A DNA stretch of 64,000 nt from a virus (Duplodnaviria > Caudoviricetes), in IMG/VR virus record IMGVR_UViG_3300037295_000263, positions 152,705 to 216,704 of that record; one strand, 5' to 3'. Shown in pieces: positions 23-35,735 of this stretch (the first letter of the stretch is position 1; every line of letters starts with the position of its first letter). Below the pieces are notes generated by a model. The model did no database searches. It was not told where the DNA came from and was given only the letters and a program-made list of their open reading frames with translations. Made by a program: the position numbers and the translations under genes.

Positions 23-1435
23 ATGGATAAAATATTTTGGCTGCAACCCGCTGAAAGTAAAATTGGTCAGTGGCAAAACAGGATAAAAACTTTAAGTAAC
101 AGTGATACATTTTGTGTGTTGCCATGGATTCATTTTGCTACTAGGCCAAATGGAGATATGCGACTATGTTGCAACAGCAACTCTAGTGGTGCTGGTGGAG
201 ATCATGAAATTGGATTAGTTAAAAATGAAACAGGGCGTCCTGCTAATTTTGGAAAAGAAACTCCAATGAGCGCATGGAACAACGACTATATGAAATCAGT
301 CAGAACAACCATGCTAAGTGGAAATATTCCGGCAAGCTGCAAAAAATGTTTCGACGAAGAATCTAAAGGAGTAGCCAGCAAGCGTATATGGGAAACTGCA
401 ACGTGGGTTGAAGAAGGTATTAGCATTGAAGAGCTTGTTGCAGAAACACAACAAGACGGAACTGTTCCTGAAAAATTAGTCTACTTAGATCTCAGGCTGG
501 GACATACTTGCAACTTAAAATGTATTATGTGCAGTCCGCACGATAGTAGCAAATGGGTAGCGGATCATAAGAAAGTATTTCCGTTATTTCAAAATAGCGA
601 ATTAAAAAGGCAAATGCAATGGGACCAATCATCATTTAATAATAAATGGCACGAAAATCCAGATTTTTGGAAAGAAATGTATTCTCAAATTCCTAATCTT
701 CGTCAAGTATATTTTGCTGGTGGCGAACCGTTAATGATTAAAGAACATAAAACATTTCTAGAAGAAATTGTGCGACAAGGCTATGCTGACAAAATATTAA
801 TAAGGTATAATACAAACGGATTATTAATCGATGATGATATGATCGAGCTGTGGACTAAATTTAAAAAAGTAAAAGTAGGTGTGAGTATCGATGCAGTAGG
901 AGAACGTAATCACTATATTAGATATCCAACTGACTGGAAAACAATAGTATCAACTTTACATAAGCTAGATAATAGTCCTATCAATATTCAAACTAGTATT
1001 GCAACAGCTATCCAAATACTCAACATTAAACATTTACCCGAGTTGGCAAAATGGAAAATACAACAAGGATTTAAAAAGATAAATTTTGAAAATGTCACCG
1101 GCGGAATAGAAGCTGGCGGCGGTATATTCAATATGCATTTGTTGTATATACCTACTTACTTGAGTATACGATGTTTGCCCGAGCAAGATAAAATAGAAGT
1201 AAGAAAGAAGTTTGCAGAATTTGCAGATTGGTTATACAACAACTATAGAACTGACGAAGACTTTTGGAAAACTAACCCGTACGGATGGAAAAGGTGGCAG
1301 GCTATTTTAGATTTTATGAATAGTGAAGATCACACTCACTTACTTCCCGCCTTTCAAGAATATATCAACAAAATGGATTCTGTTAGAAAGATTAATTGTA
1401 GCTACATATTTCCAGAGATTTCACATTTAATATGA
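23..1435 (+). CDS. Radical SAM protein with N-terminal SPASM/twitch-like Cys cluster
   Basis: CNLKCIMC (CxxxCxxC), FAGGEP, RYNTNG, VSIDA; N-terminal CxxPW...CC...CxxC motif. Confidence 0.92.
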   Translation: MDKIFWLQPAESKIGQWQNRIKTLSNSDTFCVLPWIHFATRPNGDMRLCCNSNSSGAGGDHEIGLVKNETGRPANFGKETPMSAWNNDYMKSVRTTMLSGNIPASCKKCFDEESKGVASKRIWETATWVEEGISIEELVAETQQDGTVPEKLVYLDLRLGHTCNLKCIMCSPHDSSKWVADHKKVFPLFQNSELKRQMQWDQSSFNNKWHENPDFWKEMYSQIPNLRQVYFAGGEPLMIKEHKTFLEEIVRQGYADKILIRYNTNGLLIDDDMIELWTKFKKVKVGVSIDAVGERNHYIRYPTDWKTIVSTLHKLDNSPINIQTSIATAIQILNIKHLPELAKWKIQQGFKKINFENVTGGIEAGGGIFNMHLLYIPTYLSIRCLPEQDKIEVRKKFAEFADWLYNNYRTDEDFWKTNPYGWKRWQAILDFMNSEDHTHLLPAFQEYINKMDSVRKINCSYIFPEISHLI

Positions 1436-2424
1436 AAAAAATTATTAAAATAGACTCTAATACTCCTTCAAATTTTTTAAGAATAGAATTATTTTTAAGT
1501 AATCTTTGTAACTACAAATGTTGGTATTGTTTTCCAGGATGTAATGAAGGAACAGTAAATTGGCCGGAATTAGAATTGTTGAAAAAAAATCTCGGACACT
1601 TACTTAAATATTATAAAGACAAACAAAATAAAGAAGTAATACTTCTGCATATCATCGGGGGCGAGCCTACATTGTGGAGTAAATTGGGGGAATTTGTTAA
1701 GTATTTTAAAGAAATACATAATTGCTTAATTAGCATTTCAACGAACGGATCTAGGACTTATAGGTGGTGGGACGAATATGGACATTATATGGACCACATT
1801 ATGTTTAGTTGTCATCATGAAAATATGGATAACAATCATATTATAAAGGTAATGGACTTGCTATATTCCAAGGACGTTAATGTGTCTGCTATGGTATTAA
1901 TGGATGCTTATCAATGGGATAAATGTGTAAGCATTGTAGAAGATTTAAAAAATAGTCAGTATCGATGGTCAATTACAGCTATTAATTTAATCACTGACAA
2001 GTTCAAGTACACTGATGAGCAAAAAAAATATCTCGAACATGCTGATAAAAGAATGCCAGATCTTGAGTACTGGCACCGAACTAATAAACGACCACGCGAA
2101 GACTCTACTATTACGTTCGACGATGGCGAACGACTACAAGTTAACGACAATTGGGTGGCGTTAAACAATTTAAATTATTTTTATAATTGGGAATGTTCTT
2201 TGGGTATTGAAACCTTTTATATCGACACTGACGGATACATTCGAGGAGCATGCAACCAATACTTATATAATTTAGATTATCGTTATAATATTTTCGATTC
2301 TGATTTTACAAATTTATTTAAACCAAATATTGTTCCAGTAATATGCAAACGAGCCAATGCGTGTACTTGCCAACCAGAAATTAATGCATCAAAGAAAAAA
2401 ATTATTCCTATAATTGCTTCTTAG
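1432..2424 (+). CDS. Radical SAM protein with C-terminal SPASM/twitch-like domain
   Basis: CNYKCWYC, IIGGEPT, ISTNGS; C-terminal C..G...GAC...C..C.C. Confidence 0.92.
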   Translation: MKKIIKIDSNTPSNFLRIELFLSNLCNYKCWYCFPGCNEGTVNWPELELLKKNLGHLLKYYKDKQNKEVILLHIIGGEPTLWSKLGEFVKYFKEIHNCLISISTNGSRTYRWWDEYGHYMDHIMFSCHHENMDNNHIIKVMDLLYSKDVNVSAMVLMDAYQWDKCVSIVEDLKNSQYRWSITAINLITDKFKYTDEQKKYLEHADKRMPDLEYWHRTNKRPREDSTITFDDGERLQVNDNWVALNNLNYFYNWECSLGIETFYIDTDGYIRGACNQYLYNLDYRYNIFDSDFTNLFKPNIVPVICKRANACTCQPEINASKKKIIPIIAS

Positions 2425-3295
2425 TTATTGGAATATCTGCTGCACAAGTGCAATAATTCCTATCGCATATAACAGGCTCAATAGGTAAAATAAAACTACT
2501 TTGGTAAATATTTCCCAAGCTGCCTCCGACTCTGCAAGTAGCACGATGTACATCACCATCCCAATTTATCATAAGACTTTCTATACCCGCATTGCATGAC
2601 CAGCCTTTATACTTGTTTAAATGTAATTTAATTATATCGTTGGCATGGATAGTTTGTGTTCCATCAATTACACAATTACCCTGCACGGTTGCATCTTGTT
2701 CTTTAATCCATTTTAAGTCATCTGGATGGTATCGCATATCATCAAACAAGTCGTGATCACCTTCAGTCCAGCGTATACGGCGAACGGTGCTAGGAATTTC
2801 AGCTAGTAAACACCTAGCACGTAACTGCATTACAGCATCCATGTAATCGTGGTGTGCCATAATCTGTGCTATTACTTTTGTTTGAGTTAAATCTACTATA
2901 CTTTCTACAGTATTAAATACACGTTTCCAGTCGTACTCTAAATGAATACTAAACACTAGTTGATCAACTTTTAGACCAGCATAAAACTCATAAGGCAATG
3001 TGCCATTAGTTGTGACACTAATCCACTCAACACCTGCATGATTACAGTGGTGTATTAGTTCTTTAAATTTAGGGTGTACACAAGGTTCTCCACCTGTAAA
3101 ACTTAATCGCACAGGTTTTCCCAAAGTGATGAGTTTATCTACTGTGGATTTTAAGATTTCGATATCAGTGTGTGGACTTGTGCTATCGTGTATAGAACTA
3201 GGGCAGTAACTGCAATCGTAGTTGCAACGCTTGCCCAGGTTCCATTCAATCTTAATACTACCCTGATGTGGCCACCTGCTGGTTACACTATGCAT
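2408..3295 (-). CDS. Radical SAM protein with C-terminal SPASM/twitch-like domain
   Basis: CNYDCSYC, FTGGEP, VTTNGT; C-terminal CNAG...RATC...CDRNYCTC. Confidence 0.92.
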   Translation of the reverse strand: MHSVTSRWPHQGSIKIEWNLGKRCNYDCSYCPSSIHDSTSPHTDIEILKSTVDKLITLGKPVRLSFTGGEPCVHPKFKELIHHCNHAGVEWISVTTNGTLPYEFYAGLKVDQLVFSIHLEYDWKRVFNTVESIVDLTQTKVIAQIMAHHDYMDAVMQLRARCLLAEIPSTVRRIRWTEGDHDLFDDMRYHPDDLKWIKEQDATVQGNCVIDGTQTIHANDIIKLHLNKYKGWSCNAGIESLMINWDGDVHRATCRVGGSLGNIYQSSFILPIEPVICDRNYCTCAADIPITKKQL

Positions 3296-4604
3296 ACGGT
3301 TTAAACTCTGGTATTGTTTCTAATAAATTTTGATTCCTGGTAGCATCTAATTGGTAGTTAAATTCTAAAAAATCTGGCCACAGATTAAATTGGTCTCTGG
3401 ATTCGAGATAATTTATATTATCTCGAATTTGTTGTTGTGTTATGATTTCAAGCAACGGATATTTTGTAACAGCTTCCCAGGTGTTTACTTTTAAACTAAC
3501 TGCTTTTAATCTGTCTATTGCAATTATCTTTAAATCTGCAGGTAGCACTTGTGCCGATAGACAATTTGGATAACTCACTCTATGACTGTAAAATACAATG
3601 CCCATCTTGTTAATAAAATAATCAATGCATTCCGCAGCTTGCAATATATTTCCAGCTTGGGCGGTGAACGCACCTACTACTCTACTTACATTGGGGATTT
3701 TTTTTATTTCTTTAATGTTCTCTTCCACTTGAGAAAAGTCACCGTTGCCGCGAATGTAATTATAAACATCATGAATGCCGTCAATGCTGACATTAACTGC
3801 AACACTTTTGAAATGTGGCCAATAGTCATGGACGGTTCTTCCTTTACTAATGCCTAGAGTAGTTCCATTAGTAGCATATTTAATTTCGATATTTTTACCA
3901 TAGGGTTTCAACATGTCCAATATACGGTAATGTTGCGGATCCATTAATGGCTCGCCTCCTGCAAATTCTACCCTTCTAAAATAAGGTAATAATTTCTTAA
4001 AGCTATCCCACCAGTTATCACTATCGTCAAACGCTCCTATATATTGTCCAGGCGATTTAACAAGCTTTTCAATTGTAGGCACAAGGTAATTATTTTCTTT
4101 TTTATAAAAAGGAACTACTTTGTTCCAATCTTTCCAATTAGTGCTATCTAACGGATTGCACATTCGACATTTAAGATTGCACAAGTTGTTTAGTTTAATT
4201 TCCATTGTAGGAAATTCAAATGGCATCGAGTAGTCTTCTCGTAATGTATCTAAAGCATTGGGATACAAATTAATCCTAGCTTCGGGTATAATACCTTTTA
4301 TGTGACGTTGACGTAGACTTTCTACTCCTTGGTCTTCTAGATCAAAACACGGTTTGCATACATCTGCACGTTCTCCGCATAAGACTTTTTTTCGTACATC
4401 TTTAATAATGTCGTTATTCCAAATTTCTTCCAAAGTATTATCTTGAATGTTTCCAATTGGCGCACTTCGACAACAGACTTTAACAGCCCCGTCTTCCCTT
4501 GTTGCTAATCCAGTAAACGGATGCATACAAAATGTTTTACTTTGTTTGTTCAATTGCCCACTCTCTTTCTTTGCACCAAAAGCACTTTCCACATACTGGA
4601 ACAA
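3288..4604 (-). CDS. Radical SAM protein with N-terminal twitch-like cluster (likely TTG start at 4553)
   Basis: FCMHPF...VCC...CKPC; CNLKCRMC, FAGGEP, YATNGT, VSIDG. Confidence 0.92.
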   Translation of the reverse strand: MFQYVESAFGAKKESGQLNKQSKTFCMHPFTGLATREDGAVKVCCRSAPIGNIQDNTLEEIWNNDIIKDVRKKVLCGERADVCKPCFDLEDQGVESLRQRHIKGIIPEARINLYPNALDTLREDYSMPFEFPTMEIKLNNLCNLKCRMCNPLDSTNWKDWNKVVPFYKKENNYLVPTIEKLVKSPGQYIGAFDDSDNWWDSFKKLLPYFRRVEFAGGEPLMDPQHYRILDMLKPYGKNIEIKYATNGTTLGISKGRTVHDYWPHFKSVAVNVSIDGIHDVYNYIRGNGDFSQVEENIKEIKKIPNVSRVVGAFTAQAGNILQAAECIDYFINKMGIVFYSHRVSYPNCLSAQVLPADLKIIAIDRLKAVSLKVNTWEAVTKYPLLEIITQQQIRDNINYLESRDQFNLWPDFLEFNYQLDATRNQNLLETIPEFKPYA

Positions 4605-5349
4605 GCTGATGGTGTAGATAATTAGTATAATCTAATCCTTCAATTATGCCTTCGCAACTACGAGTAATTGACAATAAATCAGTGATTCCTAAACGGGAAT
4701 ATTGTTTTATAATCCAATCTTTAGTTGTAAATCTAAATGGATGACATGCAATTATACCTAAATGATTCATTATAGTCAAGTGAAAGTTTTCTTTACAAGG
4801 TTCTGCATCTCTAGTAGGCATTCCTCCCGAAACTACAGGTGGATTTTTTGTAACAGCATTAAAGTATGCAGGAATATCGTTAGTAGTGCATACATATTCA
4901 GTAAATGCTCTTAACTCTATGTTATCTCCACTAACTAGCTTTCCGTACTCATCTAGCATAGTCGGTCCGGTATCTCCCCATTCAAACTCCGGAGGTATAA
5001 AATTTTTATGTAAAAAAAATTTAATATTGGTAAATCTATCATTAAAATACGTAACAACTTCTGCTGCAATATGTTGTTGCCACGGTTTTGTCTTCCATTC
5101 TCGTATACTGTTAATGAAATGAACTTCTACTGACAAATCGAATTCTGTTATTATTTGACATATTAAAAATGCCAACATCGCACTGTCTGCGCCACCGCTT
5201 AACGCAATGCTTACTTTTTTCCAAGATTTGTCGAAAGGAATTATTTGTCCGTCTATTTCGTGCATAATTTTATTGTACGGACTATCATTATATAGTTGTT
5301 GTATCATGATAATATTTACACAGGATCGACAGTGCATAAATATTTTCAT
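4537..5349 (-). CDS. QueC-like PP-loop ATPase (7-cyano-7-deazaguanine synthase-like fold)
   Basis: ALSGGADS PP-loop; C-terminal TRSC...CGKCFWCKERE Zn motif as in QueC. Confidence 0.7.
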   Translation of the reverse strand: MKIFMHCRSCVNIIMIQQLYNDSPYNKIMHEIDGQIIPFDKSWKKVSIALSGGADSAMLAFLICQIITEFDLSVEVHFINSIREWKTKPWQQHIAAEVVTYFNDRFTNIKFFLHKNFIPPEFEWGDTGPTMLDEYGKLVSGDNIELRAFTEYVCTTNDIPAYFNAVTKNPPVVSGGMPTRDAEPCKENFHLTIMNHLGIIACHPFRFTTKDWIIKQYSRLGITDLLSITRSCEGIIEGLDYTNYLHHQLVPVCGKCFWCKEREWAIEQTK

Positions 5350-6016
5350 GTTATCTAAAACTATTCACACTGTGCCATTATCTATAATAGATAATGCTAT
5401 TGAAGAAATGCCTTTAGTAGATTTTAAAATGCCATTAAATGCGCCTTCTGGGAATTTCTTCTACGATCCCTGGCATATTCGCCCTGAATTTGTAGGATCT
5501 ATATGGGAAACTATTTTAAATACTTTACCTTTTGATTTAGGGGAAGCACGCATTATTAAATTAGAACCTGGAAATAGTTATCTAAGCCACGCTGACATAG
5601 ACGATAGATGGCACTTGTCATTGACTGGAAATAGATCATATTTAATTGATCTAGATAGCCATAAGGTTCACTTATTAAAAAAAGACGGGATATGGTACAA
5701 GATGAATGCTGGCAAGTTACACACTGCTTCTAACTTTGGCCAAATACCTCGATATCAGCTAGTAGTAAGAAAGCTATTAAAAAATAGCTGCTTAACTAAT
5801 GTAAAATTGGTAAAAATTGAACCTGCATACCCACAATTTGACTATCGATATACATTTGATAATACAATAAGCCCTTGGCTAAACTACGCAGCCAAACAAC
5901 ATTATCTTTTAAATTTTTCAGTAAATGAATCGACAGTTCAATTTCATTTATTAGAATCTCAAATTAGTAGTTTAAATGGTATTTTAACTAATAATTTTAA
6001 AGTAACTTATGAATAA
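5207..6016 (+). CDS. Asp/Asn beta-hydroxylase-like 2OG-Fe(II) oxygenase (likely start MLSKT at 5348)
   Basis: ARIIKLEPG..YLSHADID HxD motif; HTASN..RYQLVV distal His. Confidence 0.75.
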   Translation: MLTFFQDLSKGIICPSISCIILLYGLSLYSCCIMIIFTQDRQCINIFMLSKTIHTVPLSIIDNAIEEMPLVDFKMPLNAPSGNFFYDPWHIRPEFVGSIWETILNTLPFDLGEARIIKLEPGNSYLSHADIDDRWHLSLTGNRSYLIDLDSHKVHLLKKDGIWYKMNAGKLHTASNFGQIPRYQLVVRKLLKNSCLTNVKLVKIEPAYPQFDYRYTFDNTISPWLNYAAKQHYLLNFSVNESTVQFHLLESQISSLNGILTNNFKVTYE

Positions 6017-6500
6017 GGTATGCTGTATAACTGGACATACTACAGGGCTTGGAAAATTCTTATATGATTATTTTATAAATCAAGGGTGGACAGTAGTAGG
6101 ATTTAGCAGATCTTCGGGATTTAATATTGAACAAGATCCTGTCAAAGTGGCAAACCTGATACAGGGTTGCGAGTTGTTTATTAACAATGCGTATGCCCAC
6201 GGAGCTCAATTAGACTTAATTAATCTTACAGTAGGGCATGTTAAAAAAATGGTAGTATGCGGATCTGTTGCTGCAGACTATCCTGATCCTGCAATGGTTG
6301 AATATAGTCAACATAAAAAAATTATAGAAGATAGATGCAATGCTCTTTCTGATGTAAAAATAAATAACACTGACATATTGTTACTAAAGCTCACAAGCAG
6401 TTCTTACAAAGACTACCTTACAGTTTCTAGTACTATCAATTTTTGGTTAGATAACCCGTCTATTACCCAAATTAAATTTAATGTAAAGGAAATAATATGA
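6009..6500 (+). CDS. Short-chain dehydrogenase/reductase-like Rossmann protein
   Basis: ITGHTTGLGK; LFINNA; YSQHK (YxxxK). Confidence 0.8.
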   Translation: MNKVCCITGHTTGLGKFLYDYFINQGWTVVGFSRSSGFNIEQDPVKVANLIQGCELFINNAYAHGAQLDLINLTVGHVKKMVVCGSVAADYPDPAMVEYSQHKKIIEDRCNALSDVKINNTDILLLKLTSSSYKDYLTVSSTINFWLDNPSITQIKFNVKEII

Positions 6501-9184: not shown

Positions 9185-9732
9185 TGTCACCGACATATTG
9201 TCCATTAGCTTGGACTTCAGTTAATTTTCACGACAACAGAGCGTCTCCGTGCTGTGGTTGGCTGGGAGAAGGAACCAAAGTAGCAAGTGTAGCAGATGCG
9301 TTAACTTCCCAGTTATTCATACAAACTAGATCAAATATGCTAACGGGAAAGGAAAGTCACGGATGCGCACAATGTTATCAAGAAGAAAGCTTAGGAATTT
9401 CATCAAGAAGAATGCATGCGTTAGCACAAGTTGGAGTAACTACTAACATTAAATTACGTTCTTTAGATATATCATTTGATAACATTTGCAATTTAAAATG
9501 CCGAGGATGTGTTAGTAGTAACAGTCATTTAATACGCAATGATGAAATAGAAATATATGGTGAATCTTTTTCTGAAACAAAATACTGGCAAAATAATATA
9601 CCAGTAGATGTATCCAATTTAGAAGAAATAAACATTGCAGGAAGAGAGCCATTTCTTTCAAAAAATTTTAAGAATTTTTCAAATGCACTACTGTTTCTAG
9701 TAAAAAGTTTTTTGCAATACAAAAAGAAATAA
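9183..9732 (+). pseudogene. Truncated radical SAM protein (twitch-first type)
   Basis: YCPLAW..PCC..CAQCYQEE, CNLKCRGC present, but GGEP reads GREP and the ORF stops about 30 aa later; TNG and SIDG barrel motifs are absent. Confidence 0.6.
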
Positions 9733-9736
9733 TAAA

Positions 9737-14771: not shown

Positions 14772-15694
14772 CTATTAGATATCCTTACGATAAAAGGCAT
14801 TTGAATTTTGGAAATTCGTCTGCTATAAAAGATCCTGCAGTATTGTCGTTATTATCTAATTTAAATTTAAATTTAGTAGATATTTTACAAAACGAACGGA
14901 TTGTTAAAGAATTTATAAACGATTACAAAACGTGGATTGAATCTTCTAAATTAAATAAAATAAAAGGCCTTGCAGATTTTAACTATGCATGCTACTCTAA
15001 TGGAACTACTGAAGCATTTGATAAGTTTTATTTAAAAAATAACACTAGACGATTTAGATGCTTTCACGGCGAATATATGTATCATCAACTAATGTGGAGG
15101 AATTGTTATCCTTCTTGGGAATTTATTAGTGACTGCGATCTAGATATCAACGATGCAGTTGTAATTAGTTTGCCTTTTGCCGATACAGGAAATCAACATT
15201 CTGAATATAAAAAATTAATTGCTACTTGCGAAAAACTTAATGTTCCAGTTTTAGTCGACTGTGCATATTTAGGAATTTGCCAAGGTATTGAATTTGACTT
15301 TTCTAGTACTTGTATAACTGATGTGACTTTTAGCTTATCAAAAACTTTTCCTATATCGCATGCAAGGATAGGACTAAGGCTCACACGTAGCGACAATGAC
15401 GATTCTTTATTTGTTGTAAATAAGGGCGACTATGTTAATCGTCTAGGTGCATATATAGGCTCAACACTAATTAAGAATTTTTCTTCCGATTATATTGTTA
15501 CCGAATATCGAGACATTCAAACAAAATTTTGTAACCACCTTAAGGTAGTGCCAAGTAATACTGTGCTATTTGGCATTGGCAATTTATTGTGGAATGAATA
15601 TAATCGAGGTAGAGGATCGAATCGTTTAAGTTTCCATAACTACTATCATTTACAGTCTGATAAATTTTATGAAGAAAATTCTCCCCGTGCCTAA
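14768..15694 (+). CDS. PLP-dependent fold-type I enzyme (aminotransferase-like)
   Basis: SNGTTEAF, VLVDCAY, FSLSKTF (Schiff-base Lys), RIGLR. Confidence 0.8.
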   Translation: MTIRYPYDKRHLNFGNSSAIKDPAVLSLLSNLNLNLVDILQNERIVKEFINDYKTWIESSKLNKIKGLADFNYACYSNGTTEAFDKFYLKNNTRRFRCFHGEYMYHQLMWRNCYPSWEFISDCDLDINDAVVISLPFADTGNQHSEYKKLIATCEKLNVPVLVDCAYLGICQGIEFDFSSTCITDVTFSLSKTFPISHARIGLRLTRSDNDDSLFVVNKGDYVNRLGAYIGSTLIKNFSSDYIVTEYRDIQTKFCNHLKVVPSNTVLFGIGNLLWNEYNRGRGSNRLSFHNYYHLQSDKFYEENSPRA

Positions 15695-16865
15695 CGCTAA
15701 AATATTAAATTTTGAATTATTGTACTTAAATGAGAATAACTACTCAGATCAAAAAATTGCTGATGTTAATTTTAGATTAGTATCTGCTGATATTAAAAAT
15801 GCAGCAAAGGAAGGTTGCGATACAATATTTGGATTGTTATTGCTAGATGGATTTTTATATAAAAACAATACATTGTTTTTTGATTGGTTACGATCTATAG
15901 AAAAATTATGCTATCAAGAAAATATACATAATCTTATATTAGTTCCAGGGATGTGTGAAGATTTTAAAAATGTATTAGAACAACAGGAAATAACTGCCAA
16001 TATAGAATTTTTTGATTTTACACACAGAATGGTGTACAATAGTTATTGTAATAAACTTGATACATTGCCTCGCTGGAATAAAGATGCAACAGATTTTCTT
16101 TTTCTGGGCGGAATTCCTTCTAGGCCGAATAGGATCAGGTTACTATCAAAATTTTATCAAAAGACAGGATTAAAAAATTGCAAGTGGAGTTTTTTTAAAC
16201 CGGTGTCCGATGAAGATAAATCCATTTGTAGATTGCTAATGAAAGATTTTTCCAATGAAGAATATCGAGATTTCGTTGATAGTTGCGAAAACTCTGTCGA
16301 TGACTTATATATCGAAACGCAAGAGTATTCACGGCTGACCGGCCCTGATATTATAAAAACTAATATATACAGTAAACCTTGGCTTAAAGACCCGGTGTGG
16401 ATAGATACTTCAATATTTGAAAATACTAAATTCAGTATCGTGTCAGAGGGCAACGCTTATCCTCCTGCAACTAGTTATAAATTCCTTACAGAAAAAACAT
16501 GGAGAGCTGTTGCAAATCGGCATCCTTTTATCATAGCAGGTCATGCAGATCAAATATATTATGCACATCGGCGTGGCTTATGCACCTTTGAAAATTATAT
16601 GGACTCGGATTTTTATAATTCCCCTGAAGAAGAAAAGTTTGATGCAATTGTACGCAATGCAACGGAATGGCTCGATAATTTAAACTTCCATGAAGTCAAC
16701 AACGATGTAGAAAAGAATTATCAAAGATTTTTAGAAATTGCTCAAGAGCAAAATTATTGGCTACAAACGTTAAACGAAGAATATCAAGTACCACTTGTAG
16801 AAATTAATAAATGGTTTAACCAGCTAGGATTTTCTCATTTAATAAGAGTGCCCGATGGATTCTAA
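15669..16865 (+). CDS. Putative glycosyltransferase-like protein (GT10/GT47-like C-terminus)
   Basis: FSIVSE...FLTEKTWRAVANRHPFII...FENY; paralogue of 37503-38693. Confidence 0.5.
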   Translation: MKKILPVPNAKILNFELLYLNENNYSDQKIADVNFRLVSADIKNAAKEGCDTIFGLLLLDGFLYKNNTLFFDWLRSIEKLCYQENIHNLILVPGMCEDFKNVLEQQEITANIEFFDFTHRMVYNSYCNKLDTLPRWNKDATDFLFLGGIPSRPNRIRLLSKFYQKTGLKNCKWSFFKPVSDEDKSICRLLMKDFSNEEYRDFVDSCENSVDDLYIETQEYSRLTGPDIIKTNIYSKPWLKDPVWIDTSIFENTKFSIVSEGNAYPPATSYKFLTEKTWRAVANRHPFIIAGHADQIYYAHRRGLCTFENYMDSDFYNSPEEEKFDAIVRNATEWLDNLNFHEVNNDVEKNYQRFLEIAQEQNYWLQTLNEEYQVPLVEINKWFNQLGFSHLIRVPDGF

Positions 16866-17778
16866 ATGTGCAGCATTTTGGCATCATACTAATATTCGAA
16901 GCGACAATCGAATCTTTCCATGTTGCCGATTTAAAGAACCTGTTGCTACATTCCATGGGACTGTAGATAATATTTTGCTACTACCCGAGTACGTGCAGTT
17001 AAGGAAACAAAGCTCTGAAGGCGAATATATATCTAGTTGCCAAAAATGCTACAAAGAAGAATCGCAAGGCAAACAAAGCCTGCGTCAAGTGTTTAACAAA
17101 GAATACAATACAGATACTGTTAGTTTAGAATATTTAGAAATTGGATTTGATAATATATGCAATTTAACTTGCGATGGTTGTTGGGAGGAATTTAGTTCGG
17201 AATGGGGCAAAAAACTTATGGTAGTAAAATCAAAAATTGTTAAGTCTACTGCCGAATTTACACAAATTTCTGATACTATTTCCAAAGTACTATTCTTAGG
17301 TGGCGAGCCTTTAATGACTACTCGACACCAAAAGTTTTTAGAATCATTTAACGATTTATCAAAATTAACGGTAATATACAATACTAACGGAACATTTTTG
17401 CTAGATGACAAAACTATAAATATTCTTAATCAGTGTAAGTCTGCAGAATTTATTGTAAGTATAGACGGATATGCTGACCTTAATTCCCGAGTACGACCAG
17501 GTAGTAATTGGAAGGATATCTTATTGTTAATAGATCAAATTAAGTCTCTACAATTTAAATTATCAGTACATTCAGTAATACATTTAAATAACTGGAAAGG
17601 ATTAAAAGAGTTATCTAAATTTGTTAAATCGTTAGATGTAAACTGGACAGTGAATGTGCTTACGTATCCACATCGTCTTGATATTATTAATATAGAAAAT
17701 AAACAAGAATTTATTAGTTTAATCGAAAGTATAGATGTTCCAACTAAAGAGTATATTATTGCACATGTTAAAATTTAA
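16855..17778 (+). CDS. Radical SAM protein with N-terminal twitch-like cluster
   Basis: KCAAFW..PCC..CQKCYKEE..SLR; CNLTCDGC, FLGGEP, YNTNGT, VSIDG. Confidence 0.92.
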   Translation: MDSKCAAFWHHTNIRSDNRIFPCCRFKEPVATFHGTVDNILLLPEYVQLRKQSSEGEYISSCQKCYKEESQGKQSLRQVFNKEYNTDTVSLEYLEIGFDNICNLTCDGCWEEFSSEWGKKLMVVKSKIVKSTAEFTQISDTISKVLFLGGEPLMTTRHQKFLESFNDLSKLTVIYNTNGTFLLDDKTINILNQCKSAEFIVSIDGYADLNSRVRPGSNWKDILLLIDQIKSLQFKLSVHSVIHLNNWKGLKELSKFVKSLDVNWTVNVLTYPHRLDIINIENKQEFISLIESIDVPTKEYIIAHVKI

Positions 17779-18364
17779 AAACTACGTCGATCATCAAATT
17801 ATAAATGATGCATTGTTTACTATCAAAAGCAGCGTCAAGGCCTTCGATTGGCGAGAACTTGGAAACTTGTTAAGGTTGGAAGAAAAAGATTTTTCTTCAT
17901 TTTTATTTTCTTGGTTTTCTTTAAAAACCGATGACTCCGGATCATATTTCGAATCTAGCGGTAGCTTTCCTGAACTTGACCAAACTAACTGTTCGTTGCC
18001 TAGTTCTGAATTATTGTCGATAGATTTACAACTATTAGATGCTCCGCAATTTAAAGAATTAAAAGAACTAGTAAACAATATTAAAGGCGTAGATTACGCA
18101 GGATTTATGTTTATGAGTCCTGGATCACATATACCTGCACACAACGACGGAGAAGTTAACAGTATAATAATAACATTAAACATAGAAGAAAATAATGCAG
18201 ATGCGTTTCTTAGAATTAATAAAGATCATTATTATTTTAGTAAATCAGAAATTTTTACATTCGATGCATCTATTCCACACGAAGCTAAGAATCTTTCAAA
18301 AACTGACTGGATTATGTTCGTGTTAAGAATAGAAAAAGAATATTTCACAAAGGAAGAATATTGA
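17735..18364 (+). CDS. Asp/Asn beta-hydroxylase-like 2OG-Fe(II) oxygenase
   Basis: MSPGSHIPAHND; FDASIPHEAKN..W. Confidence 0.8.
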   Translation: MFQLKSILLHMLKFKNYVDHQIINDALFTIKSSVKAFDWRELGNLLRLEEKDFSSFLFSWFSLKTDDSGSYFESSGSFPELDQTNCSLPSSELLSIDLQLLDAPQFKELKELVNNIKGVDYAGFMFMSPGSHIPAHNDGEVNSIIITLNIEENNADAFLRINKDHYYFSKSEIFTFDASIPHEAKNLSKTDWIMFVLRIEKEYFTKEEY

Positions 18365-19416
18365 AAGTATTAACAAACAACCACTGGGACCCGTTACAAG
18401 AAATTATTGTAGGGATTGCTGACTATGCAAGAGTTCCTACAGTAGACAGAAGCACAATGAGCATGAGTTATACAAATCATCCTATAGACTTAATCAAACC
18501 ATTAGAGGGAGAGTATCCCAGATGGCTGATAGACGAAGCCAACGAAGACTTGCAAGGGTTAGTGGATGTGCTATCAAAAGCAGGAGTCATAGTGCATAGA
18601 CCTGCTGCTATAGACCATAGCGTAGAATTTAGTACTCCGGATTGGAAAACGACTGGATGGTATACATGGTGTCCGCGTGATTTATTATTACCTTTAAATA
18701 ATTTAGTAATAGAGACTCCGAGTGCATGTCGCGCAAGACACTACGAAACTCGAGCATATAAACATATCATGTTAGAAGCAATTAACGATGGAGTCGAATG
18801 GATTGCAGCACCTAAACCTACGTTACTAGACAATAGCTATCAATTTGAAGATATTGACGGTAAGCCTAGCTTACTAAATTTAGAGCCTATTTTTGATGCA
18901 CCTAACTGTGTAAGAATGGGTAAAGATATATTGTTTCAAATTTCTAATACAGGAAATCACTGGGGATTAAAATGGCTACAAAATACATTAACCCCCCGGG
19001 GATACAATATACATCCTGCTGAACACATTTACAGCTACGGGCATTTTGATAGTACTATAGTGCCTTTACGTCCAGGGTTAGTGTTGCTGAACAGCAGCAG
19101 AGTAACTAAGGAAAATTGTCCTAAGATTTTTGAAAAATGGGATAAAATATGGTTTGACGACTGCATTTCTCAAGGAAGTAAAATTCCAGGAGGAGTAGCA
19201 CCATGTAGTCCGTATATAGGTATGAATATATTAAGCATCGATCATAATACTGTTGTTGTAGATGATACACAGATTCCACTGATGCGAGAATTGGAAAAAT
19301 ATAATATCACTAGTGTTCCTATTAGATTTAGACACGCAATGACTCTAAGTGGTGGTATACATTGCACAACTTTGGATCTTCGTAGAAAAGGGTCGCTTGA
19401 AGATTATTTTTCATGA
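18361..19416 (+). CDS. Amidinotransferase (glycine/inosamine-phosphate amidinotransferase family)
   Basis: WDPLQEIIVG, CPRD, FDAPN, GHFDST, C-terminal GGIHCTTLDLRR with catalytic Cys; TTG start. Confidence 0.9.
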   Translation: MKVLTNNHWDPLQEIIVGIADYARVPTVDRSTMSMSYTNHPIDLIKPLEGEYPRWLIDEANEDLQGLVDVLSKAGVIVHRPAAIDHSVEFSTPDWKTTGWYTWCPRDLLLPLNNLVIETPSACRARHYETRAYKHIMLEAINDGVEWIAAPKPTLLDNSYQFEDIDGKPSLLNLEPIFDAPNCVRMGKDILFQISNTGNHWGLKWLQNTLTPRGYNIHPAEHIYSYGHFDSTIVPLRPGLVLLNSSRVTKENCPKIFEKWDKIWFDDCISQGSKIPGGVAPCSPYIGMNILSIDHNTVVVDDTQIPLMRELEKYNITSVPIRFRHAMTLSGGIHCTTLDLRRKGSLEDYFS

Positions 19417-19910
19417 TACGATTTTTCGGAACTATCGAAGATTTTTGGTCAGCCGATTTAAAAAGCTATCAATTTGTAAATAGATATTCTGCAGGACAAC
19501 GATCTTCTTTTCATAAAAACTATTCAAATACAAACAATGATCTACTGCAAGGATTTGATAGCGAGCTACCAGTAAAAGGAAGATTATTCCTCCAGCAACT
19601 AAAGTTAACAATTGGAACAGTATCCTGGACATGCATTGAACCAGGTCAATCTATTCCAGTGCATACTGATGCATTTTATAAATTTAGAATAGAAAACGAT
19701 ATCGACATCAGCCAGTGTATAAGATATTTAATATTTTTACAAGATTGGAGTTTTGGGCATGTAGTAGAATTTGAAGAGCTGTCACTTACTAAGTGGAAAT
19801 GTGGCGACGTCTGGGTGTTTGATCACAATTCTAAACATTTTGCATCAAATGCAAGCAATACCGATTTTATAACATGTCAAGTGAATACAATAGTAAATAC
19901 TGGTACTTAA
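19413..19910 (+). CDS. 2OG-Fe(II) oxygenase-like protein
   Basis: IEPGQSIPVHTD; KHFASNAS. Confidence 0.75.
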   Translation: MIRFFGTIEDFWSADLKSYQFVNRYSAGQRSSFHKNYSNTNNDLLQGFDSELPVKGRLFLQQLKLTIGTVSWTCIEPGQSIPVHTDAFYKFRIENDIDISQCIRYLIFLQDWSFGHVVEFEELSLTKWKCGDVWVFDHNSKHFASNASNTDFITCQVNTIVNTGT

Positions 19911-21043
19911 TAGGAATTATCATGTCATTAGACGCTCTTCAGATTCACTGGGACAATCAAACACTAAATTATGATTTGGAAAAATATAACTGGCCGGCAT
20001 GGGCACTATCGGTAATACAAGAAGTTGCACCGCAAGTAACAGAATTAGAAACATTGCATAATGTATTGACCCCTGTTGAAATTGTAAAAGTTAGTCAACA
20101 TGTACAGAATGCCTGTAGTAGACTTGACTTTATGAAAAAGTTTGATGACTTTGTGCAAGGATTCGTTCCTGAAAGAATACAAAATAAAAGATATTTAATT
20201 CAGCGTCAAGGAACATTAAGAGTTGTTATTCCTAATCAGTCTAGCGTTGGCAGACGATTAGCGTTTCATCAAGGCATTTTCGTCGGTAATGGGCGAGGCT
20301 GCAGAACTATATGGACTCCATTTACTCAAGCTAAAGGCACCAACACTATGTGGATGATGGACCTTGATATTTCAAGAGAAATATCCAAGCGTGTGCTATC
20401 AGAAAAATGGAGTTTAGAAAAGTTCGAAGATGAATGTTTAAAATATGCATGGCCAGTTACGCTACAGCCAGGGCAAAGTCATTTATTTTTTCAAGAACAT
20501 ATTCACGGCAATGTAGATAATAAAGAAAATTATACCCGAGTTAGTATGGATATGCGTATACTAATCGAAGGCGAAGAGTGGGGTAGAAGACTTCCTGGGG
20601 GATTTATGAGATTACCGGGAGATTATCAAGTTACAGAACAGTTAGACTACACCGGTAAAAAGTTTATTACATACGCAGGTTGGAATAGTCAGTTCAGTAA
20701 AGGAATCCCGCTGCCAATGCAACGTGCGATAATCGAACCTTATTGCCAGTCTAATAAAATTAATTATTCATCTTACGAGTTTGAAAATGAACACATGGAT
20801 TGGCAGCCTGGACTGGAACATTATATTAAAGAAAAACCTGACGGAATAGTATTGTGCAGCATGTACAGCTTAACTGACGACGCTGAAAGATGCTTAGAGT
20901 TGTTAAATCTCGCACTAGACAGTGGCGTTGAGCTACATTTTGCAAATGAGCTGTGTTCATTAAGAACAAAAGACGATTTAGAAAGAATTGTAACTTATAT
21001 AAACTTTGCGGTACCTAAAAAAGGTCCGCAAGTTTGGGAATAG
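19874..21043 (+). CDS. StrG/PhyH-like 2OG-Fe(II) oxygenase fused to a C-terminal domain (likely start MSLDA at 19921)
   Basis: LRVVIP..LAFHQG..TIWTPFT..IHGNVDN..TRVSMDMRI; separate C-terminal alpha/beta domain. Confidence 0.65.
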   Translation: MSSEYNSKYWYLIGIIMSLDALQIHWDNQTLNYDLEKYNWPAWALSVIQEVAPQVTELETLHNVLTPVEIVKVSQHVQNACSRLDFMKKFDDFVQGFVPERIQNKRYLIQRQGTLRVVIPNQSSVGRRLAFHQGIFVGNGRGCRTIWTPFTQAKGTNTMWMMDLDISREISKRVLSEKWSLEKFEDECLKYAWPVTLQPGQSHLFFQEHIHGNVDNKENYTRVSMDMRILIEGEEWGRRLPGGFMRLPGDYQVTEQLDYTGKKFITYAGWNSQFSKGIPLPMQRAIIEPYCQSNKINYSSYEFENEHMDWQPGLEHYIKEKPDGIVLCSMYSLTDDAERCLELLNLALDSGVELHFANELCSLRTKDDLERIVTYINFAVPKKGPQVWE

Positions 21044-35724: not shown

Positions 35725-35735
35725 TTTTAAGTTCC

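Follow-up and report, generated by a model that had tools for sequence, protein, structure and literature searches.

Introduction

Phages have been known to carry islands of tailoring enzymes since 2010, and the product is known for none of them. Analogous modules were described in that year in the Campylobacter phages CP220 and CPt10 by Timms et al., who described the clusters as interchangeable and probably not essential (PMC2853527). An equivalent module followed in 2025 in the Synechococcus phage S-SCSM2R (PMC12801897), and aquatic myophages have such modules in their hypervariable "host recognition cluster" (PMC7029224). A preliminary description of the locus treated here had implied that it was without precedent, a view that these systems overturn.

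The locus belongs to an uncultured freshwater jumbo T4-like phage, of which we analyzed a stretch of 64,000 nucleotides (the window; positions 152,705 to 216,704 of IMG/VR record IMGVR_UViG_3300037295_000263) in its genomic surroundings. With confidence a little better than even, we interpret the island as a hyperplastic region for sugar tailoring, in which a host sugar nucleotide would be converted to an unusual amino- or guanidino-sugar and attached by phage glycosyltransferases. The broad idea of a viral cluster for a modified sugar, peptide, or base stands and can be narrowed, on the evidence below, to a product of the sugar type.

Extent and organization of the island

The island had been described as one undivided 21-kb unit with its left boundary at position 23. 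Its true left end lies 7.3 kb before the window, at window position -7303 (genome position 145401), and it spans 28 kb and 35 ORFs with nearly no intergenic DNA. The tight packing and strand switches noted earlier are confirmed, with gaps of -143 to +4 nt between neighboring ORFs. This block of about 35 ORFs encoding soluble tailoring enzymes is real and is made up of two modules that probably behaved as cassettes when they were taken up and rearranged. Module A (window -7.3 to 8.3 kb) holds six radical SAM enzymes, a methyltransferase, a PP-loop enzyme, and cupins, and module B (8.3 to 21 kb) holds an amidinotransferase, a PLP enzyme, a GT-A/methyltransferase, a GT-B-like protein, and oxygenases. 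No fold could be assigned for eight ORFs of the island.

All eight radical SAM ORFs proposed between 23 and 21043 (23-1435, 1432-2424, 2408-3295 and 3288-4604 on the minus strand, 9124-9732, 12864-14000 on the minus strand, 13896-14771, and 16855-17778) carry CxxxCxxC and match Radical_SAM or Fer4_12. The earlier count of about seven Fe/2OG oxygenases was slightly high; five are supported in this range (9737-10231, 12115-12867, 17735-18364, 19413-19910, and 19874-21043), four by Asp_Arg_Hydrox matches and HHalign and the last as TIGR04324-like, with ORF 5207-6016 only a weak cupin candidate. Four further oxygenases sit immediately upstream of the window. The GNAT-like, kinase-like, and SGNH genes proposed earlier find no match in Pfam, NCBIfam, PHROGs, or PDB.

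Module A

The module A genes that reach into the window are as follows; percentages of relatives refer to loci around orthologs of 23-1435.

-989 to 30 (1..30 in the window), plus strand: radical SAM enzyme with C-terminal SPASM, 3' end in the window (Pfam Radical_SAM 7e-9, SPASM 3e-5)
23..1435, plus strand: N-terminal-twitch radical SAM enzyme, module A core (NF033640 402.7 bits versus cut-off 170)
1432..2424, plus strand: short radical SAM enzyme with viperin/MoaA-like core (Pfam Radical_SAM 6.7e-12; CNYKCWYC; 56% of relatives)
2408..3295, minus strand: short radical SAM enzyme, module A core (Pfam 7.8e-12; CNYDCSYC; 100% of relatives)
3288..4604, minus strand: N-terminal-twitch radical SAM enzyme, module A core (NF033640 314 bits; 100% of relatives, median identity 75%)
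4537..5349, minus strand: PP-loop ATPase of the adenylating amidotransferase type (SGGADS at residue 51; ATP_bind_3 0.006; TilS N-domain 3e-4)
5207..6016, plus strand: unassigned protein, weak cupin candidate (HHalign 68% to a small-cupin family; 76% of relatives)
6009..7111, plus strand: two tandem paralogous short Rossmann/SDR-like proteins, 6009-6500 and 6497-7111 (mutual identity 42%; weak N-terminal adh_short/Epimerase matches)
7098..8367, minus strand: two proteins without assigned family, 7098-7709 and 7645-8367 (60% and 52% of relatives)

The radical SAM enzyme at 23-1435 has CNLKCIMC at residue 163 and N-terminal cysteines at positions 31, 49, 50, 106, and 109; it has 3,938 homologs, with 75 to 86% identity in the best 120 of the 3,938. 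The PP-loop motif bears out one half of the earlier "QueC-like PP-loop ATPase"; the QueC half fails, with no QueC match and a TilS-like sequence instead. ORF 5207-6016, whose relatives have 220 to 228 aa, probably starts near 5340. The proteins at 7098-7709 and 7645-8367 gave no match in Pfam, NCBIfam, PHROGs, or PDB profile searches. The two SDRs of the preliminary description, at 6009-7111, show weak family matches only. Upstream in the island lies an extended SDR (window -4934..-3981; Epimerase 6e-39, GDP_Man_Dehyd 1e-38), whose PDB matches are GalE, RmlB, and GDP-6-deoxy-mannose reductase.

Module B

The genes of module B are the following.

8333..9184, plus strand: 283-aa protein, first gene of the module (74% identical orthologs at the same position in relatives L053 and L063)
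9124..9732, plus strand: truncated N-terminal-twitch radical SAM remnant, 202 aa (NF033640 105 bits, model positions 1-192 of 398)
9737..10231, plus strand: small cupin-type Fe/2OG oxygenase, Asp_Arg_Hydrox-like (Pfam 2.5e-4; HKD at residue 94)
10228..10899, plus strand: orphan ORF, 223 aa, no family match
10896..12134, minus strand: predicted GT-A glycosyltransferase fold (residues 10-225) and class I SAM methyltransferase fold (220-390) (AlphaFold2 pLDDT 87)
12115..12867, minus strand: Asp/Asn-beta-hydroxylase-type Fe/2OG oxygenase (PF05118 1.7e-9; 50% of relatives around the anchor gene)
12864..14000, minus strand: radical SAM enzyme (Fer4_12 1.2e-8, Radical_SAM 4.5e-7)
13896..14771, plus strand: radical SAM enzyme (Fer4_12 1.6e-5; CGLSCKGC at residue 17)
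14768..15694, plus strand: short fold-type-I PLP enzyme, aminotransferase-like (weak sequence support; invariant SxSK motif)
15669..16865, plus strand: phage-specific GT-B-like glycosyltransferase candidate (Atlas structure TM 0.51-0.55 to GT4 families)
16855..17778, plus strand: short N-terminal-twitch radical SAM enzyme (NF033640 188.8 bits versus cut-off 170)
17735..18364, plus strand: Asp/Asn-beta-hydroxylase-type Fe/2OG oxygenase (PF05118 1.5e-10; HND at residue 136)
18361..19416, plus strand: L-arginine:X amidinotransferase, nearest to streptomycin StrB1 (phmmer versus 1bwd E 1.1e-92, full length)
19413..19910, plus strand: small cupin-type Fe/2OG oxygenase (PF05118 1.3e-3; HHalign)
19922..21043 (ORF 19874-21043), plus strand: anchor, PhyH/StrG-like Fe/2OG domain fused to a LIC12192-family alpha/beta domain (TIGR04324 1.6e-17, TIGR04323 1.5e-11)

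ORF 8333-9184, for which family searches gave no match, probably starts at the ATG near 8368, and by gene call the radical SAM enzyme 12864-14000 probably starts at 13856 (330 aa). Full-length relatives of the remnant at 9124-9732 have 384 to 387 aa. The cupin at 9737-10231 matches 19413-19910 and three upstream paralogs at 100% in HHalign. The glycosyltransferase-like genes of the preliminary description are backed by structure comparison. A predicted GT-A domain in 10896-12134 is supported by VIA-align Z scores of about 10 (A64R, the capsid glycosyltransferase of PBCV-1, 10.5; LH3 glycosyltransferase domain, 10.1) and by Foldseek matches to LH3, COLGALT1, and mimivirus R699; the same two-domain protein gives Z 9.8 to EgtD. 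The GT-B candidate at 15669-16865, assigned at a TM of about 0.55, is one of four paralogs in the genome, and its family is fused to Epimerase/GDP_Man_Dehyd or methyltransferase domains in other phages. The PLP enzyme proposed earlier is real: its invariant D164, Y167, S191, K192, and R200 align with the D..Y..SxSK..R of aspartate aminotransferase 2gb3. It is not of the DegT/StsC type.

The amidinotransferase, also named in the preliminary description, is strongly supported and intact, with H228, D230, and GGIHC335 invariant. The anchor is modeled at pLDDT 94.8 (AlphaFold2), with Z 14.4 to PtlH and, for the C-terminal domain, Z 12.7 to the resolvase fold. Its iron site is of the halogenase-type HxG form (H116-Q-G118), and the Asp-to-Gly change occurs in 16 of 36 family representatives, mainly in a phage-like clade. 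The only curated families that it matches are "sporadic carbohydrate cluster" families (TIGR04324, TIGR04323).

These two enzymes also raise the unlikely reading of a free aminoglycoside or aminocyclitol (pseudo-sugar), a guanidinylated, oxidized, and methylated cyclitol glycoside that would act on the host or competitors and need no scaffold or acceptor. The amidinotransferase is far nearer to streptidine StrB1 than to AGAT (5e-58), and among Swiss-Prot structures the anchor matches StrG, from the streptomycin cluster, best (E 1e-10). Twitch radical SAM enzymes, Fe/2OG dioxygenases, SDRs, a PLP aminotransferase, and GT-B are all present, with phosphatases close by at 22388-22999 and 23748-24317, and such a set is the usual aminoglycoside toolbox of the BtrN, AprD4, KanJ, and StrB1 pathways. 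In close relatives (anchor 82 to 83% identical) the same block also encodes a nucleotidyltransferase, an SDR, an APH-family kinase, and an EEVS-type sedoheptulose-7-P cyclase (PDB 4p53, ValA, E 3e-78; true DHQS reaches 6e-42 at best). However, we found no sugar-phosphate cyclase or inositol-phosphate-synthase-like gene in the 217-kb contig (about 59% of the genome), and the aminotransferase is not of the type expected. Glycosyltransferase paralogs and the cellular neighbors Wzx, PMT_2, and GT2 point to glycoconjugates, and a lytic phage is not known to profit from an antibiotic.

Flanking genes and alternative products

One gene beyond the island is listed here.

21048..22319, minus strand: tail-fiber-like gene with Mtd N-terminal domain (PF18454, residues 4-36)

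This gene encodes no enzyme of the island, and its earlier assignment as tail-fiber-like holds at 27.6 bits (cut-off 26.3). Divergent homologs occupy the same position in three relatives (L016, L053, and L063); we found no DGR-type repeat near it. A fiber-like gene abutting the island in four genomes is consistent with peptide or protein modification, in which residues of a virion protein (the adjacent fiber, for instance) or of a small ribosomal peptide would be cross-linked, epimerized, or hydroxylated and then O-glycosylated. We regard this as very unlikely. The SPASM and twitch domains, weak NCBIfam likeness to RiPP maturases, four PF05118 oxygenases, and the resemblance of the GT-A domain to collagen hydroxylysine glycosyltransferases and the PBCV-1 capsid enzyme speak for it, as does a 21-codon ORF (34277-34342) with a darobactin-like WEWSKSK core 3' of a paralogous twitch radical SAM gene. 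Peptide modification is the classical role of SPASM/twitch radical SAM enzymes and Asp/Asn hydroxylases, and we counted this against the sugar reading. The S-SCSM2R virion proteome also includes an amidinotransferase and a prolyl-hydroxylase-like protein (PMC12801897). Yet we saw no precursor peptide in the island, where gaps of at most 4 nt leave no space for one, and the WxWSKS motif was not seen in the other loci compared, although these were collected around other genes. The RiPP-maturase scores fall far under the cut-offs, and known RiPP chemistry has no use for an amidinotransferase, NDP-sugar SDRs, or a UDP-glucose dehydrogenase. Fiber O-glycosylation does not compete with sugar tailoring but is compatible with it.

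FolE and QueD are absent from the window, as described earlier, but both are encoded in the genome, with QueD 6 kb upstream of the island at the same spacing as in CP220. Together with ThyA, which adjoins the island, they suggest hypermodification of DNA or a nucleotide precursor, for example an amino, guanidino, or sugar group on 7-deazaguanine or another base that evades host restriction. We judge this quite unlikely. FolE, a QueE-like radical SAM gene, and a DNA-replication block lie right next to module B and the anchor in relatives L003/L168 and L074, together with a phosphoribosyltransferase and a HIT protein; module B between FolE and a DpdA-region gene in some relatives fits nucleotide chemistry, and we counted it against the sugar reading. 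PP-loop and radical SAM enzymes are also the QueC and QueE enzyme classes, and the T4 DNA glucosyltransferases are GT-B enzymes. However, S-SCSM2R carries an amidinotransferase, a small cupin, a radical SAM enzyme, and glycosyltransferases together, as in module B, without FolE and QueD, so the module is independent of deazaguanine synthesis. The PP-loop protein does not match QueC, we found no TGT-family match, and the oxygenases are cupin and PhyH types rather than TET/JBP. Neither a 5-hmdU kinase nor a hydroxymethylase was identified, the ThyA score of 353 bits is that of a normal thymidylate synthase, and the variable anchor position is as expected of insertion hot spots.

Conservation in uncultured relatives

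Around orthologs of 23-1435 (n = 25), the radical SAM genes at 2408 and 3288 occur in 100% of relatives, the radical SAM gene at -989 in 96%, the methyltransferase in 84%, and the PP-loop gene in 72%, with order kept; the NDP-sugar SDR of module A occurs in only 12%. Around the anchor (n = 20), the amidinotransferase is found in 70%, an NDP-sugar SDR in 65%, and the PLP enzyme in 40%. Free shuffling, named earlier as a sign against a shared pathway, is not what we see, since both modules are conserved in many uncultured relatives. Several core genes, the anchor among them, keep 70 to 87% identity over hundreds of contigs, a sign of strong purifying selection.

These data bear on the least probable alternative, that a recombination hot spot has gathered unrelated auxiliary genes and paralogs, some decaying, without a common product; we think this highly unlikely. 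The truncated radical SAM gene and the orphan ORF 10228-10899, essentially without homolog among 160 related loci, are consistent with it, as are the paralogous islands at genome 72-85 kb and 187-196 kb. The anchor's position and neighbors also differ by genome, being beside FolE, beside the fiber gene, or alone among small phage genes (L046/L049), and the CP220/CPt10 clusters were called interchangeable (PMC2853527). The 72 to 100% co-occurrence of core genes, their sequence identity, and the recurrence of the enzyme combination in distant lineages argue against it.

Proposed sugar-nucleotide tailoring

We return to the sugar reading. The NDP-sugar SDRs, UDP-glucose dehydrogenase, GT-A and GT-B-like transferases, "sporadic carbohydrate cluster" families, and cellular polysaccharide loci point to a sugar-type product. 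The phage's NDP-sugar 4,6-dehydratase/epimerase-type SDRs and a UDP-glucose/GDP-mannose dehydrogenase, encoded with a second SDR in a sister island, suggest a host nucleotide sugar as the start; this is most simply the missing scaffold, so that no scaffold synthase would be needed. From the families, conservation, and synteny of the enzymes we infer the following order and chemistry. In module B, a sugar carbon would be oxidized by an SDR or radical SAM enzyme and aminated by the PLP enzyme; the StrB1-like amidinotransferase would turn the amine into a guanidine, arginine being the donor; hydroxylation, or possibly halogenation, would fall to the cupin and PhyH-type Fe/2OG enzymes; and the GT-A/methyltransferase and GT-B-like protein would methylate and transfer the product. 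In module A, six radical SAM enzymes, two of which have an N-terminal twitch cluster, would carry out radical C-H chemistry, with methylation and, by the PP-loop enzyme, ATP-dependent amidation as further steps, on the same unit or a second one. The core of module A has no glycosyltransferase and its SDR is infrequent in relatives, so its sugar link rests on cellular neighborhoods. As acceptor, we slightly favor the virion fiber or host envelope over DNA or a free small molecule.

We found no nucleotidyltransferase, sugar-phosphate cyclase, priming transferase, flippase, or polymerase in the 217-kb contig, which covers about 59% of the genome. This was also counted against the sugar reading, as were the TM and Z values behind GT-B and GT-A, and the eight ORFs without assignable fold.

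Comparison with known systems

CP220 and S-SCSM2R both carry homologs of the amidinotransferase 18361-19416. In CP220, five radical SAM enzymes, the amidinotransferase, and two GT-A proteins occur together. In S-SCSM2R, the small-cupin family of 19413-19910 lies directly upstream of the amidinotransferase, and ORF306 is a weak homolog of the radical SAM enzyme 12864-14000. In cells, a distant full-length anchor homolog sits among CMP-sugar synthetase, Wzx-like, DegT, UDP-GlcNAc 2-epimerase, PseB-like, and GT1 genes. Bdellovibrionales hold arrays of seven to eight N-twitch radical SAM genes beside AsnB, GT2, UDP-glucose dehydrogenase, and PMT_2, and their homologs of the PLP enzyme adjoin twitch radical SAM genes. 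The same enzyme combination is found in three phage lineages that are distant from one another, as well as in Bdellovibrionales.

Extent and genomic setting of the island

The window (contig 152705-216704) is the final 64 kb of a 216,704-bp IMG/VR virus record (CheckV completeness, 59%); it has a GC content of 34% and 10 tRNA genes. The preliminary description set the left boundary of the island of tailoring enzymes at position 23, which is too far to the right: the island begins at window position −7303, with ten more genes of a similar kind upstream and a thymidylate synthase gene immediately to the left. The parts of the island named below are as follows.

−7.3 to 8.3 kb: module A
−7303 onward: the genes upstream of position 23, comprising two radical SAM genes, a methyltransferase fold, an NDP-sugar dehydratase/epimerase, three tandem small cupins, a 2OG-FeII_Oxy_3 protein, and two unknowns
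8.3 to 21 kb: module B
14768-15694: pyridoxal phosphate (PLP) enzyme
18361-19416: amidinotransferase
19922-21043: oxygenase fusion used as the anchor for locus comparisons
21048-22319: Mtd_N tail-fibre-like gene flanking the island

Tight packing and frequent strand switches, both described from the sequence, were borne out by ORF calling, which gave a nearly gapless gene run with seven strand switches and junctions of −143 to +4 nt. The island does abut a tail-fibre-like gene, as claimed, the adjoining gene being of the Mtd_N fibre-like type. A diversity-generating retroelement near this gene was considered and dropped, as there are no DGR-type repeats there. At the left border, a minus-strand stretch (L001:12240-12275, window about −7460..−7430) resembles the 3' half of a tRNA (GGTAGGACTCGAACCTAC); ARAGORN called no tRNA at this border, and the sequence may be a remnant marking a recombination site. 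The T4 late-promoter octamer TATAAATA occurs once in the window, against 13 ± 3.4 expected, and only three times across all 217 kb of the contig. Sigma-70-like sites are fewer than chance would give (74, versus 96 ± 10 in shuffles).

Paralogous islands lie at contig 72 to 86 kb and contig 187 to 196 kb. The third island (window 34369-43203) contains two twitch radical SAM genes, a GT-B-like paralogue (37503-38693), an APS-kinase-like P-loop protein, and unknowns. Elsewhere in the window are unusual auxiliary genes for a beta-ketoacyl synthase (26150-27346), a TctC-like receptor (38690-39580), a TctA transporter subunit (59953-61311), and a Gram-negative porin (61923-63056), which point to a betaproteobacterial-type host.

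Two conserved modules within a mosaic region

We fetched 80 related loci around the anchor and 80 around the radical SAM gene 23-1435 and mapped each island gene in them. Percentages for module A refer to the 25 loci around 23-1435 with at least 8 kb on either side, and those for the anchor refer to 20 loci. Around 23-1435, the radical SAM genes starting at 2408 and 3288 were both found in 100% of loci, those at −989 and −7303 in 96% and 80%, the methyltransferase in 84%, ORF 5207 in 76%, and the PP-loop gene in 72%, with gene order largely kept among the 25 loci. Around the anchor, the amidinotransferase was present in 70%, an NDP-sugar SDR in 65%, Asp_Arg_Hydrox in 50%, the PLP enzyme in 40%, and the GT-A/methyltransferase and GT-B-like genes in 35% each.

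Module B is reproduced almost entirely in four of the compared loci (L016, L023, L053, and L063), and directly after it L016, L053, and L063 carry a divergent Mtd-like fibre gene. Both anchors (19922-21043 and 23-1435) are about 20 kb apart in three contigs, as they are here. The site of module B varies: L003/L168 and L074 have it next to FolE, within the replication/deazaguanine region. L046/L049 carry the anchor alone. Free shuffling of gene content among relatives had been named in advance as evidence against a biosynthetic cluster. The region is indeed mosaic, but the mosaic is built from conserved cassettes, and the shuffling is not free. The island is composed of two conserved tailoring modules and is larger than first described. 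A megablast search of the whole island against cultured phages returned no match.

Radical SAM enzymes

All eight radical SAM ORFs reported within 23-21043 carry CxxxCxxC, and six of them score above 29.5 bits for PF04055. The ORF at 13896-14771 passes Fer4_12 alone (25.6 versus 22), and that at 9124-9732 falls below the PF04055 cut-off and is truncated, at 202 aa versus about 385 aa in relatives, which is evidence of gene decay within the island. Half of the eight belong to the NF033640 family, with an unusual N-terminal twitch (auxiliary cluster) domain. We tested membership by a whole-protein score of at least 170 bits together with an N-terminal Cys-rich twitch domain ahead of the radical SAM core. 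Scores of 402.7 (23-1435), 314.2 (3288-4604), and 188.8 (16855-17778) bits exceed this value, and 9124-9732 reaches just 105 bits because it is truncated. The N-terminal C..CC..CxxC pattern is present. The 23-1435 enzyme has 3,938 homologues, of which the best 120 are 75 to 86% identical to it.

Putative sugar-directed enzymes and other enzymes

Several functional assignments were revised. About seven oxygenases had been counted, and five Fe/2OG enzymes are supported in the same range (four Asp_Arg_Hydrox/cupin proteins and one PhyH protein). The supposed QueC-like ATPase is a PP-loop protein with SGGADS, but its QueC identity was rejected for lack of any QueC match. The amidinotransferase was correctly recognized: 18361-19416 is intact and matches StrB1 over its full length (1bwd, E 1.1e-92, residues 4-349), with glycine amidinotransferase well behind at E 5e-58. 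Its H228, D230, and C335 (GGIHC) are at least 95% conserved among 38 phage homologues, which places it in the AGAT/StrB1 family; by position, we take these residues to be StrB1 His227, Asp229, and Cys332. The PLP enzyme also stands, as 14768-15694 has the D..Y..SxSK..R signature of fold-type-I PLP enzymes; a PDB profile search with its family gave only a marginal aminotransferase match. The GNAT-, kinase-, and SGNH-like assignments drew no matches from Pfam, NCBIfam, PHROGs, or the PDB.

In the protein encoded at 10896-12134, a GT-A fold precedes a class I methyltransferase fold (AlphaFold2 pLDDT 87); the structures closest to it are A64R, the PBCV-1 capsid glycosyltransferase (Z 10.5), the GT domain of lysyl hydroxylase LH3 (Z 10.1), and EgtD (Z 9.8). 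The family of 15669-16865 is restricted to phages, has a predicted GT-B-like fold and four paralogues in this genome, and occurs in other phages as fusions to Epimerase/GDP_Man_Dehyd domains. Sequence and profile searches of the PDB found no match for 10896-12134, 15669-16865, or the 7098-7709 family, and NCBIfam and PHROGs scans found none for the unassigned ORFs. Two extended SDRs of the NDP-hexose dehydratase/epimerase/reductase type are also present in the phage, as is a UDP-glucose/GDP-mannose 6-dehydrogenase.

A conserved oxygenase fusion with an HxG iron site

The anchor (pLDDT 94.8) joins two parts, an oxygenase domain of the PhyH type (Z 14.4 to PtlH) and a small alpha/beta domain from the LIC12192 family. 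Its fold matches are hydroxylases and epimerases (PtlH, GriE, and SnoN), and among Swiss-Prot structures it matches StrG, from the streptomycin cluster, best (E 1e-10). Among curated families, it resembles only the "sporadic carbohydrate cluster" proteins TIGR04324 (63.9 bits, cut-off 150) and TIGR04323 (44.3 bits, cut-off 55). With both scores below the cut-offs, the anchor is, judged by sequence, homologous to these families yet outside them. Its own family is fused, 370 aa long, and has 326 representatives at 50% clustering.

The predicted iron site is H116-Q-G118 with distal H195 and R206, the carboxylate of HxD/E being replaced by Gly. In an alignment of 36 diverse family members, 16 have Gly at this position, mostly within a phage-like clade, and residues around the iron site covary with it (WYGH to F/W-V-G-N). 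HxD is kept by most distant homologues, including P0195, which has a bacterial polysaccharide-locus context. H-Q-G is a 2-His site of the Fe/2OG halogenase type (SyrB2, WelO5, BesD, and AdaV), in which Gly or Ala takes the place of the carboxylate in the HxD/E...H facial triad, and the anchor may be a halogenase. It is 70 to 87% identical across hundreds of contigs, and a tblastn search found no match to it in any cultured-phage record. This strongly conserved HxG oxygenase fusion is the most distinctive single element of the island.

Proposed substrate and product of the island

The most likely reading, which we hold to be somewhat more probable than not, is that the island is a sugar-tailoring and transfer system that acts on a host nucleotide sugar and makes an amino- or guanidino-sugar decoration. 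On the simplest reading, the substrate would be a nucleotide sugar of the host, so that no scaffold synthase would be needed. The bacterial locus of a distant anchor homologue contains genes for a CMP-sugar synthetase, Wzx-like, DegT, UDP-GlcNAc 2-epimerase, PseB-like, and GT1 proteins.

The closeness of QueD and ThyA to the island would suit a role in DNA modification, as would relatives where module B is squeezed in next to FolE along with genes for a phosphoribosyltransferase and a HIT protein. In L168, a relative of L003, the latter two genes (L168:9108-10008) lie between the amidinotransferase and the anchor, immediately upstream of FolE, an arrangement that hints at nucleotide-level chemistry. 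The reported lack of FolE and QueD, two members of the FolE, QueD, QueE, QueC, and DpdA set of phage 7-deazaguanine DNA modification, applies to the window but not to the genome, which has FolE at contig 93.3 kb and QueD at contig 138.7 kb. Against a role in DNA modification, the Synechococcus phage S-SCSM2R carries the module but neither FolE nor QueD, and genes of the QueC, TGT, or TET type take no part here; Pfam matches to QueC and TGT were nil.

The enzyme classes would also suit modification of a peptide, a suggestion to which a very short darobactin-like ORF, next to a paralogue and 13 kb from the island, lends some weight. Gaps of at most 4 nt within 23-21043 leave no space for a RiPP precursor beside the maturases, the sole candidate ORF being the one 13 kb outside, and a peptide product would leave the sugar enzymes unexplained. 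The candidate, a 21-codon ORF at window 34277-34342 on the minus strand (MKSETTQHTSGWEWSKSKSNH), has an AAGGA ribosome-binding site and follows the paralogous twitch radical SAM gene 34369-35724. Its WxWSKS motif was absent from the other loci retrieved, which were gathered around other genes.

The most interesting alternative to a host-sugar decoration is a free aminoglycoside-like compound, which would agree with the absence of a scaffold and an acceptor, with the resemblance to StrB1 and StrG, and with the cyclase cassette in relatives. On a bolder reading, which we regard as improbable, the island, together with a cyclase/kinase/nucleotidyltransferase cassette of its closest relatives, would form an aminoglycoside- or aminocyclitol-like pathway, and the product would be a guanidinylated, radical-SAM-tailored (pseudo)sugar that is also halogenated by the HxG enzyme. 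In L008 (1864-6872), and also in L006, L026, and L028, a nucleotidyltransferase, a RuBisCO-like protein, an APH-family kinase, an EEVS-type cyclase, and an SDR form a cassette inside the same island, which suggests a phage-encoded C7-cyclitol (carbasugar) pathway. The sedoheptulose-7-phosphate cyclase matches ValA (4p53) at E 3e-78, and since this cassette occurs in close relatives, some family members probably work on carbasugars. Alternatively, the kinase and RuBisCO-like protein could salvage 5-deoxyribose from the many radical SAM enzymes. The cassette (cyclase, APH kinase, nucleotidyltransferase, SDR, and RuBisCO-like protein) is absent from this contig, and a search for a cyclitol-forming enzyme, either an inositol-phosphate synthase or a DHQS-like sugar-phosphate cyclase, found no PF01761 match in the 217 kb of this incomplete genome. 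If the aminoglycoside-like pathway were real, the anchor would be, to our knowledge, the first 2OG halogenase directed at a sugar or cyclitol and also the first from a phage.

The value of the example lies in this class of island rather than in one genome. Aquatic and gut T4-like phages spend 10 to 20% of very large genomes on such islands, and some island genes are as conserved as structural genes. The present example resolves an island into two modules that can be tested and whose core genes are defined, links island families to cellular polysaccharide loci, accounts for the missing scaffold by a host nucleotide sugar, and picks out two tractable enzymes, the StrB1-like amidinotransferase and the conserved HxG Fe/2OG enzyme. 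A product that decorates fibres or the host envelope would bear on host range and superinfection exclusion; were it instead a free compound resembling an aminoglycoside, or a modification of DNA, the chemistry would be new for phages.

Comparison with known systems

In pelagimyophages and cyanomyophages, the hypervariable host recognition cluster, or hyperplastic island, combines genes for tail fibres with glycosyltransferases, LPS-type sugar genes (UDP-glucose 6-dehydrogenase among them), and cassettes of radical SAM genes; its authors proposed that it modifies the O-chain of the host, and they did not resolve the modules (Zaragoza-Solas et al. 2020, PMC7029224). Like that cluster, the island is large and nonsyntenic, belongs to an aquatic T4-like phage, gains and loses cassettes, and includes Asp/Asn beta-hydroxylases. 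Unlike it, the island has nucleotide metabolism genes (ThyA and QueD) on its left flank and a single abutting fibre-like gene. The host recognition cluster is defined by its position between VrlC and the neck gene gp14, with tail fibres; near the island are the one abutting Mtd_N fibre-like gene and a 2,187-aa protein 14 kb upstream, and neither VrlC nor gp14 was identified on the contig, which ends 43 kb downstream.

Among cellular genomes, Bdellovibrionales have tandem arrays of five to eight NF033640 paralogues that score above the family cut-off, alongside homologues of the PLP-like protein and of radical SAM genes −7303 and 2408. Their neighbours are AsnB (a PP-loop-type amidotransferase), GT2, UDP-Glc dehydrogenase, and a PMT_2 transferase. 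These arrays differ from the island in lying on cellular chromosomes, at 25 to 34% identity, and the Bdellovibrionales stretches retrieved showed neither an amidinotransferase nor a homologue of the anchor. A single-sequence search of genome contigs with 3288-4604 gave no match, and an alignment query was required to find the arrays. At L175/L197 (chromosome OZ220490, 784 to 805 kb), eight radical SAM genes stand in tandem, and at least seven encode N-terminal-twitch homologues; similar arrays occur in other Bdellovibrionales MAGs.

The island's amidinotransferase matches only a few cultured phages. CP220 and CPt10 (NC_027997 gp080-gp089) are T4-like virulent Campylobacter phages with a hypervariable cluster in which five or more radical SAM genes are joined by a single amidinotransferase of the AGAT/StrB1 family and by adjacent GT-A-type genes. 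Their clusters were described as nonhomologous but functionally equivalent "interchangeable modules" of five radical SAM genes and an amidinotransferase (Timms et al. 2010, PMC2853527). The whole island fits this type, with 10 radical SAM genes, one amidinotransferase, and a neighbourhood that differs among relatives. The CP220 amidinotransferase, whose surroundings include five radical SAM and two GT-A genes, is 30% identical to that of the island (E 4e-38), and QueD is about 6 kb upstream in both phages. Host and habitat differ, and recognizable homology is limited to the amidinotransferase and the generic radical SAM/SPASM core: the CP220 stretch examined had no match to the N-terminal-twitch array, the PhyH/HxG anchor, Asp_Arg_Hydrox, or the PLP proteins.

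The T4-like cyanophage S-SCSM2R (PQ898602) has, in ORF301-310, a small 2OG oxygenase followed by an amidinotransferase (35% identical), a radical SAM gene, an aminotransferase, and five glycosyltransferases in one codirectional block, which its authors named "antibiotic synthesis genes" and left unexplained (PMC12801897). Its small cupin and radical SAM protein are detectably homologous to those of the island. The block has one radical SAM gene, compared with eight in 23-21043, and a DegT/AHBA-synthase aminotransferase in place of the short class-I-like PLP enzyme, and S-SCSM2R, unlike this genome, has no FolE or QueD. Separately, the sister island (L084:1423-9707, contig 71.4 to 79.7 kb) is colinear over about nine genes, at 33 to 46% identity, with a block of entirely hypothetical genes in RsoM2USA (L198, 208 to 227 kb), a jumbo phage of Ralstonia solanacearum that is in culture and might serve as a laboratory model.

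The streptidine branch of Streptomyces griseus (StrB1, StrG, and StsC) offers a likeness in enzyme classes rather than a syntenic cluster, no function having been assigned to StrG itself. This contig differs from it in lacking a cyclitol-forming enzyme, a DegT-type aminotransferase, and dTDP-dihydrostreptose genes. In common with it, the StrB1-like amidinotransferase lies two genes from a StrG-like oxygenase fold, and relatives have a ValA-like cyclase, a kinase, and a nucleotidyltransferase. As in aminocyclitol pathways (ValA EEVS and BtrN), the island has twitch-type radical SAM enzymes, a PLP enzyme, a GT, and phosphatases nearby. The island is a further case of a known, biochemically unsolved kind of phage island.
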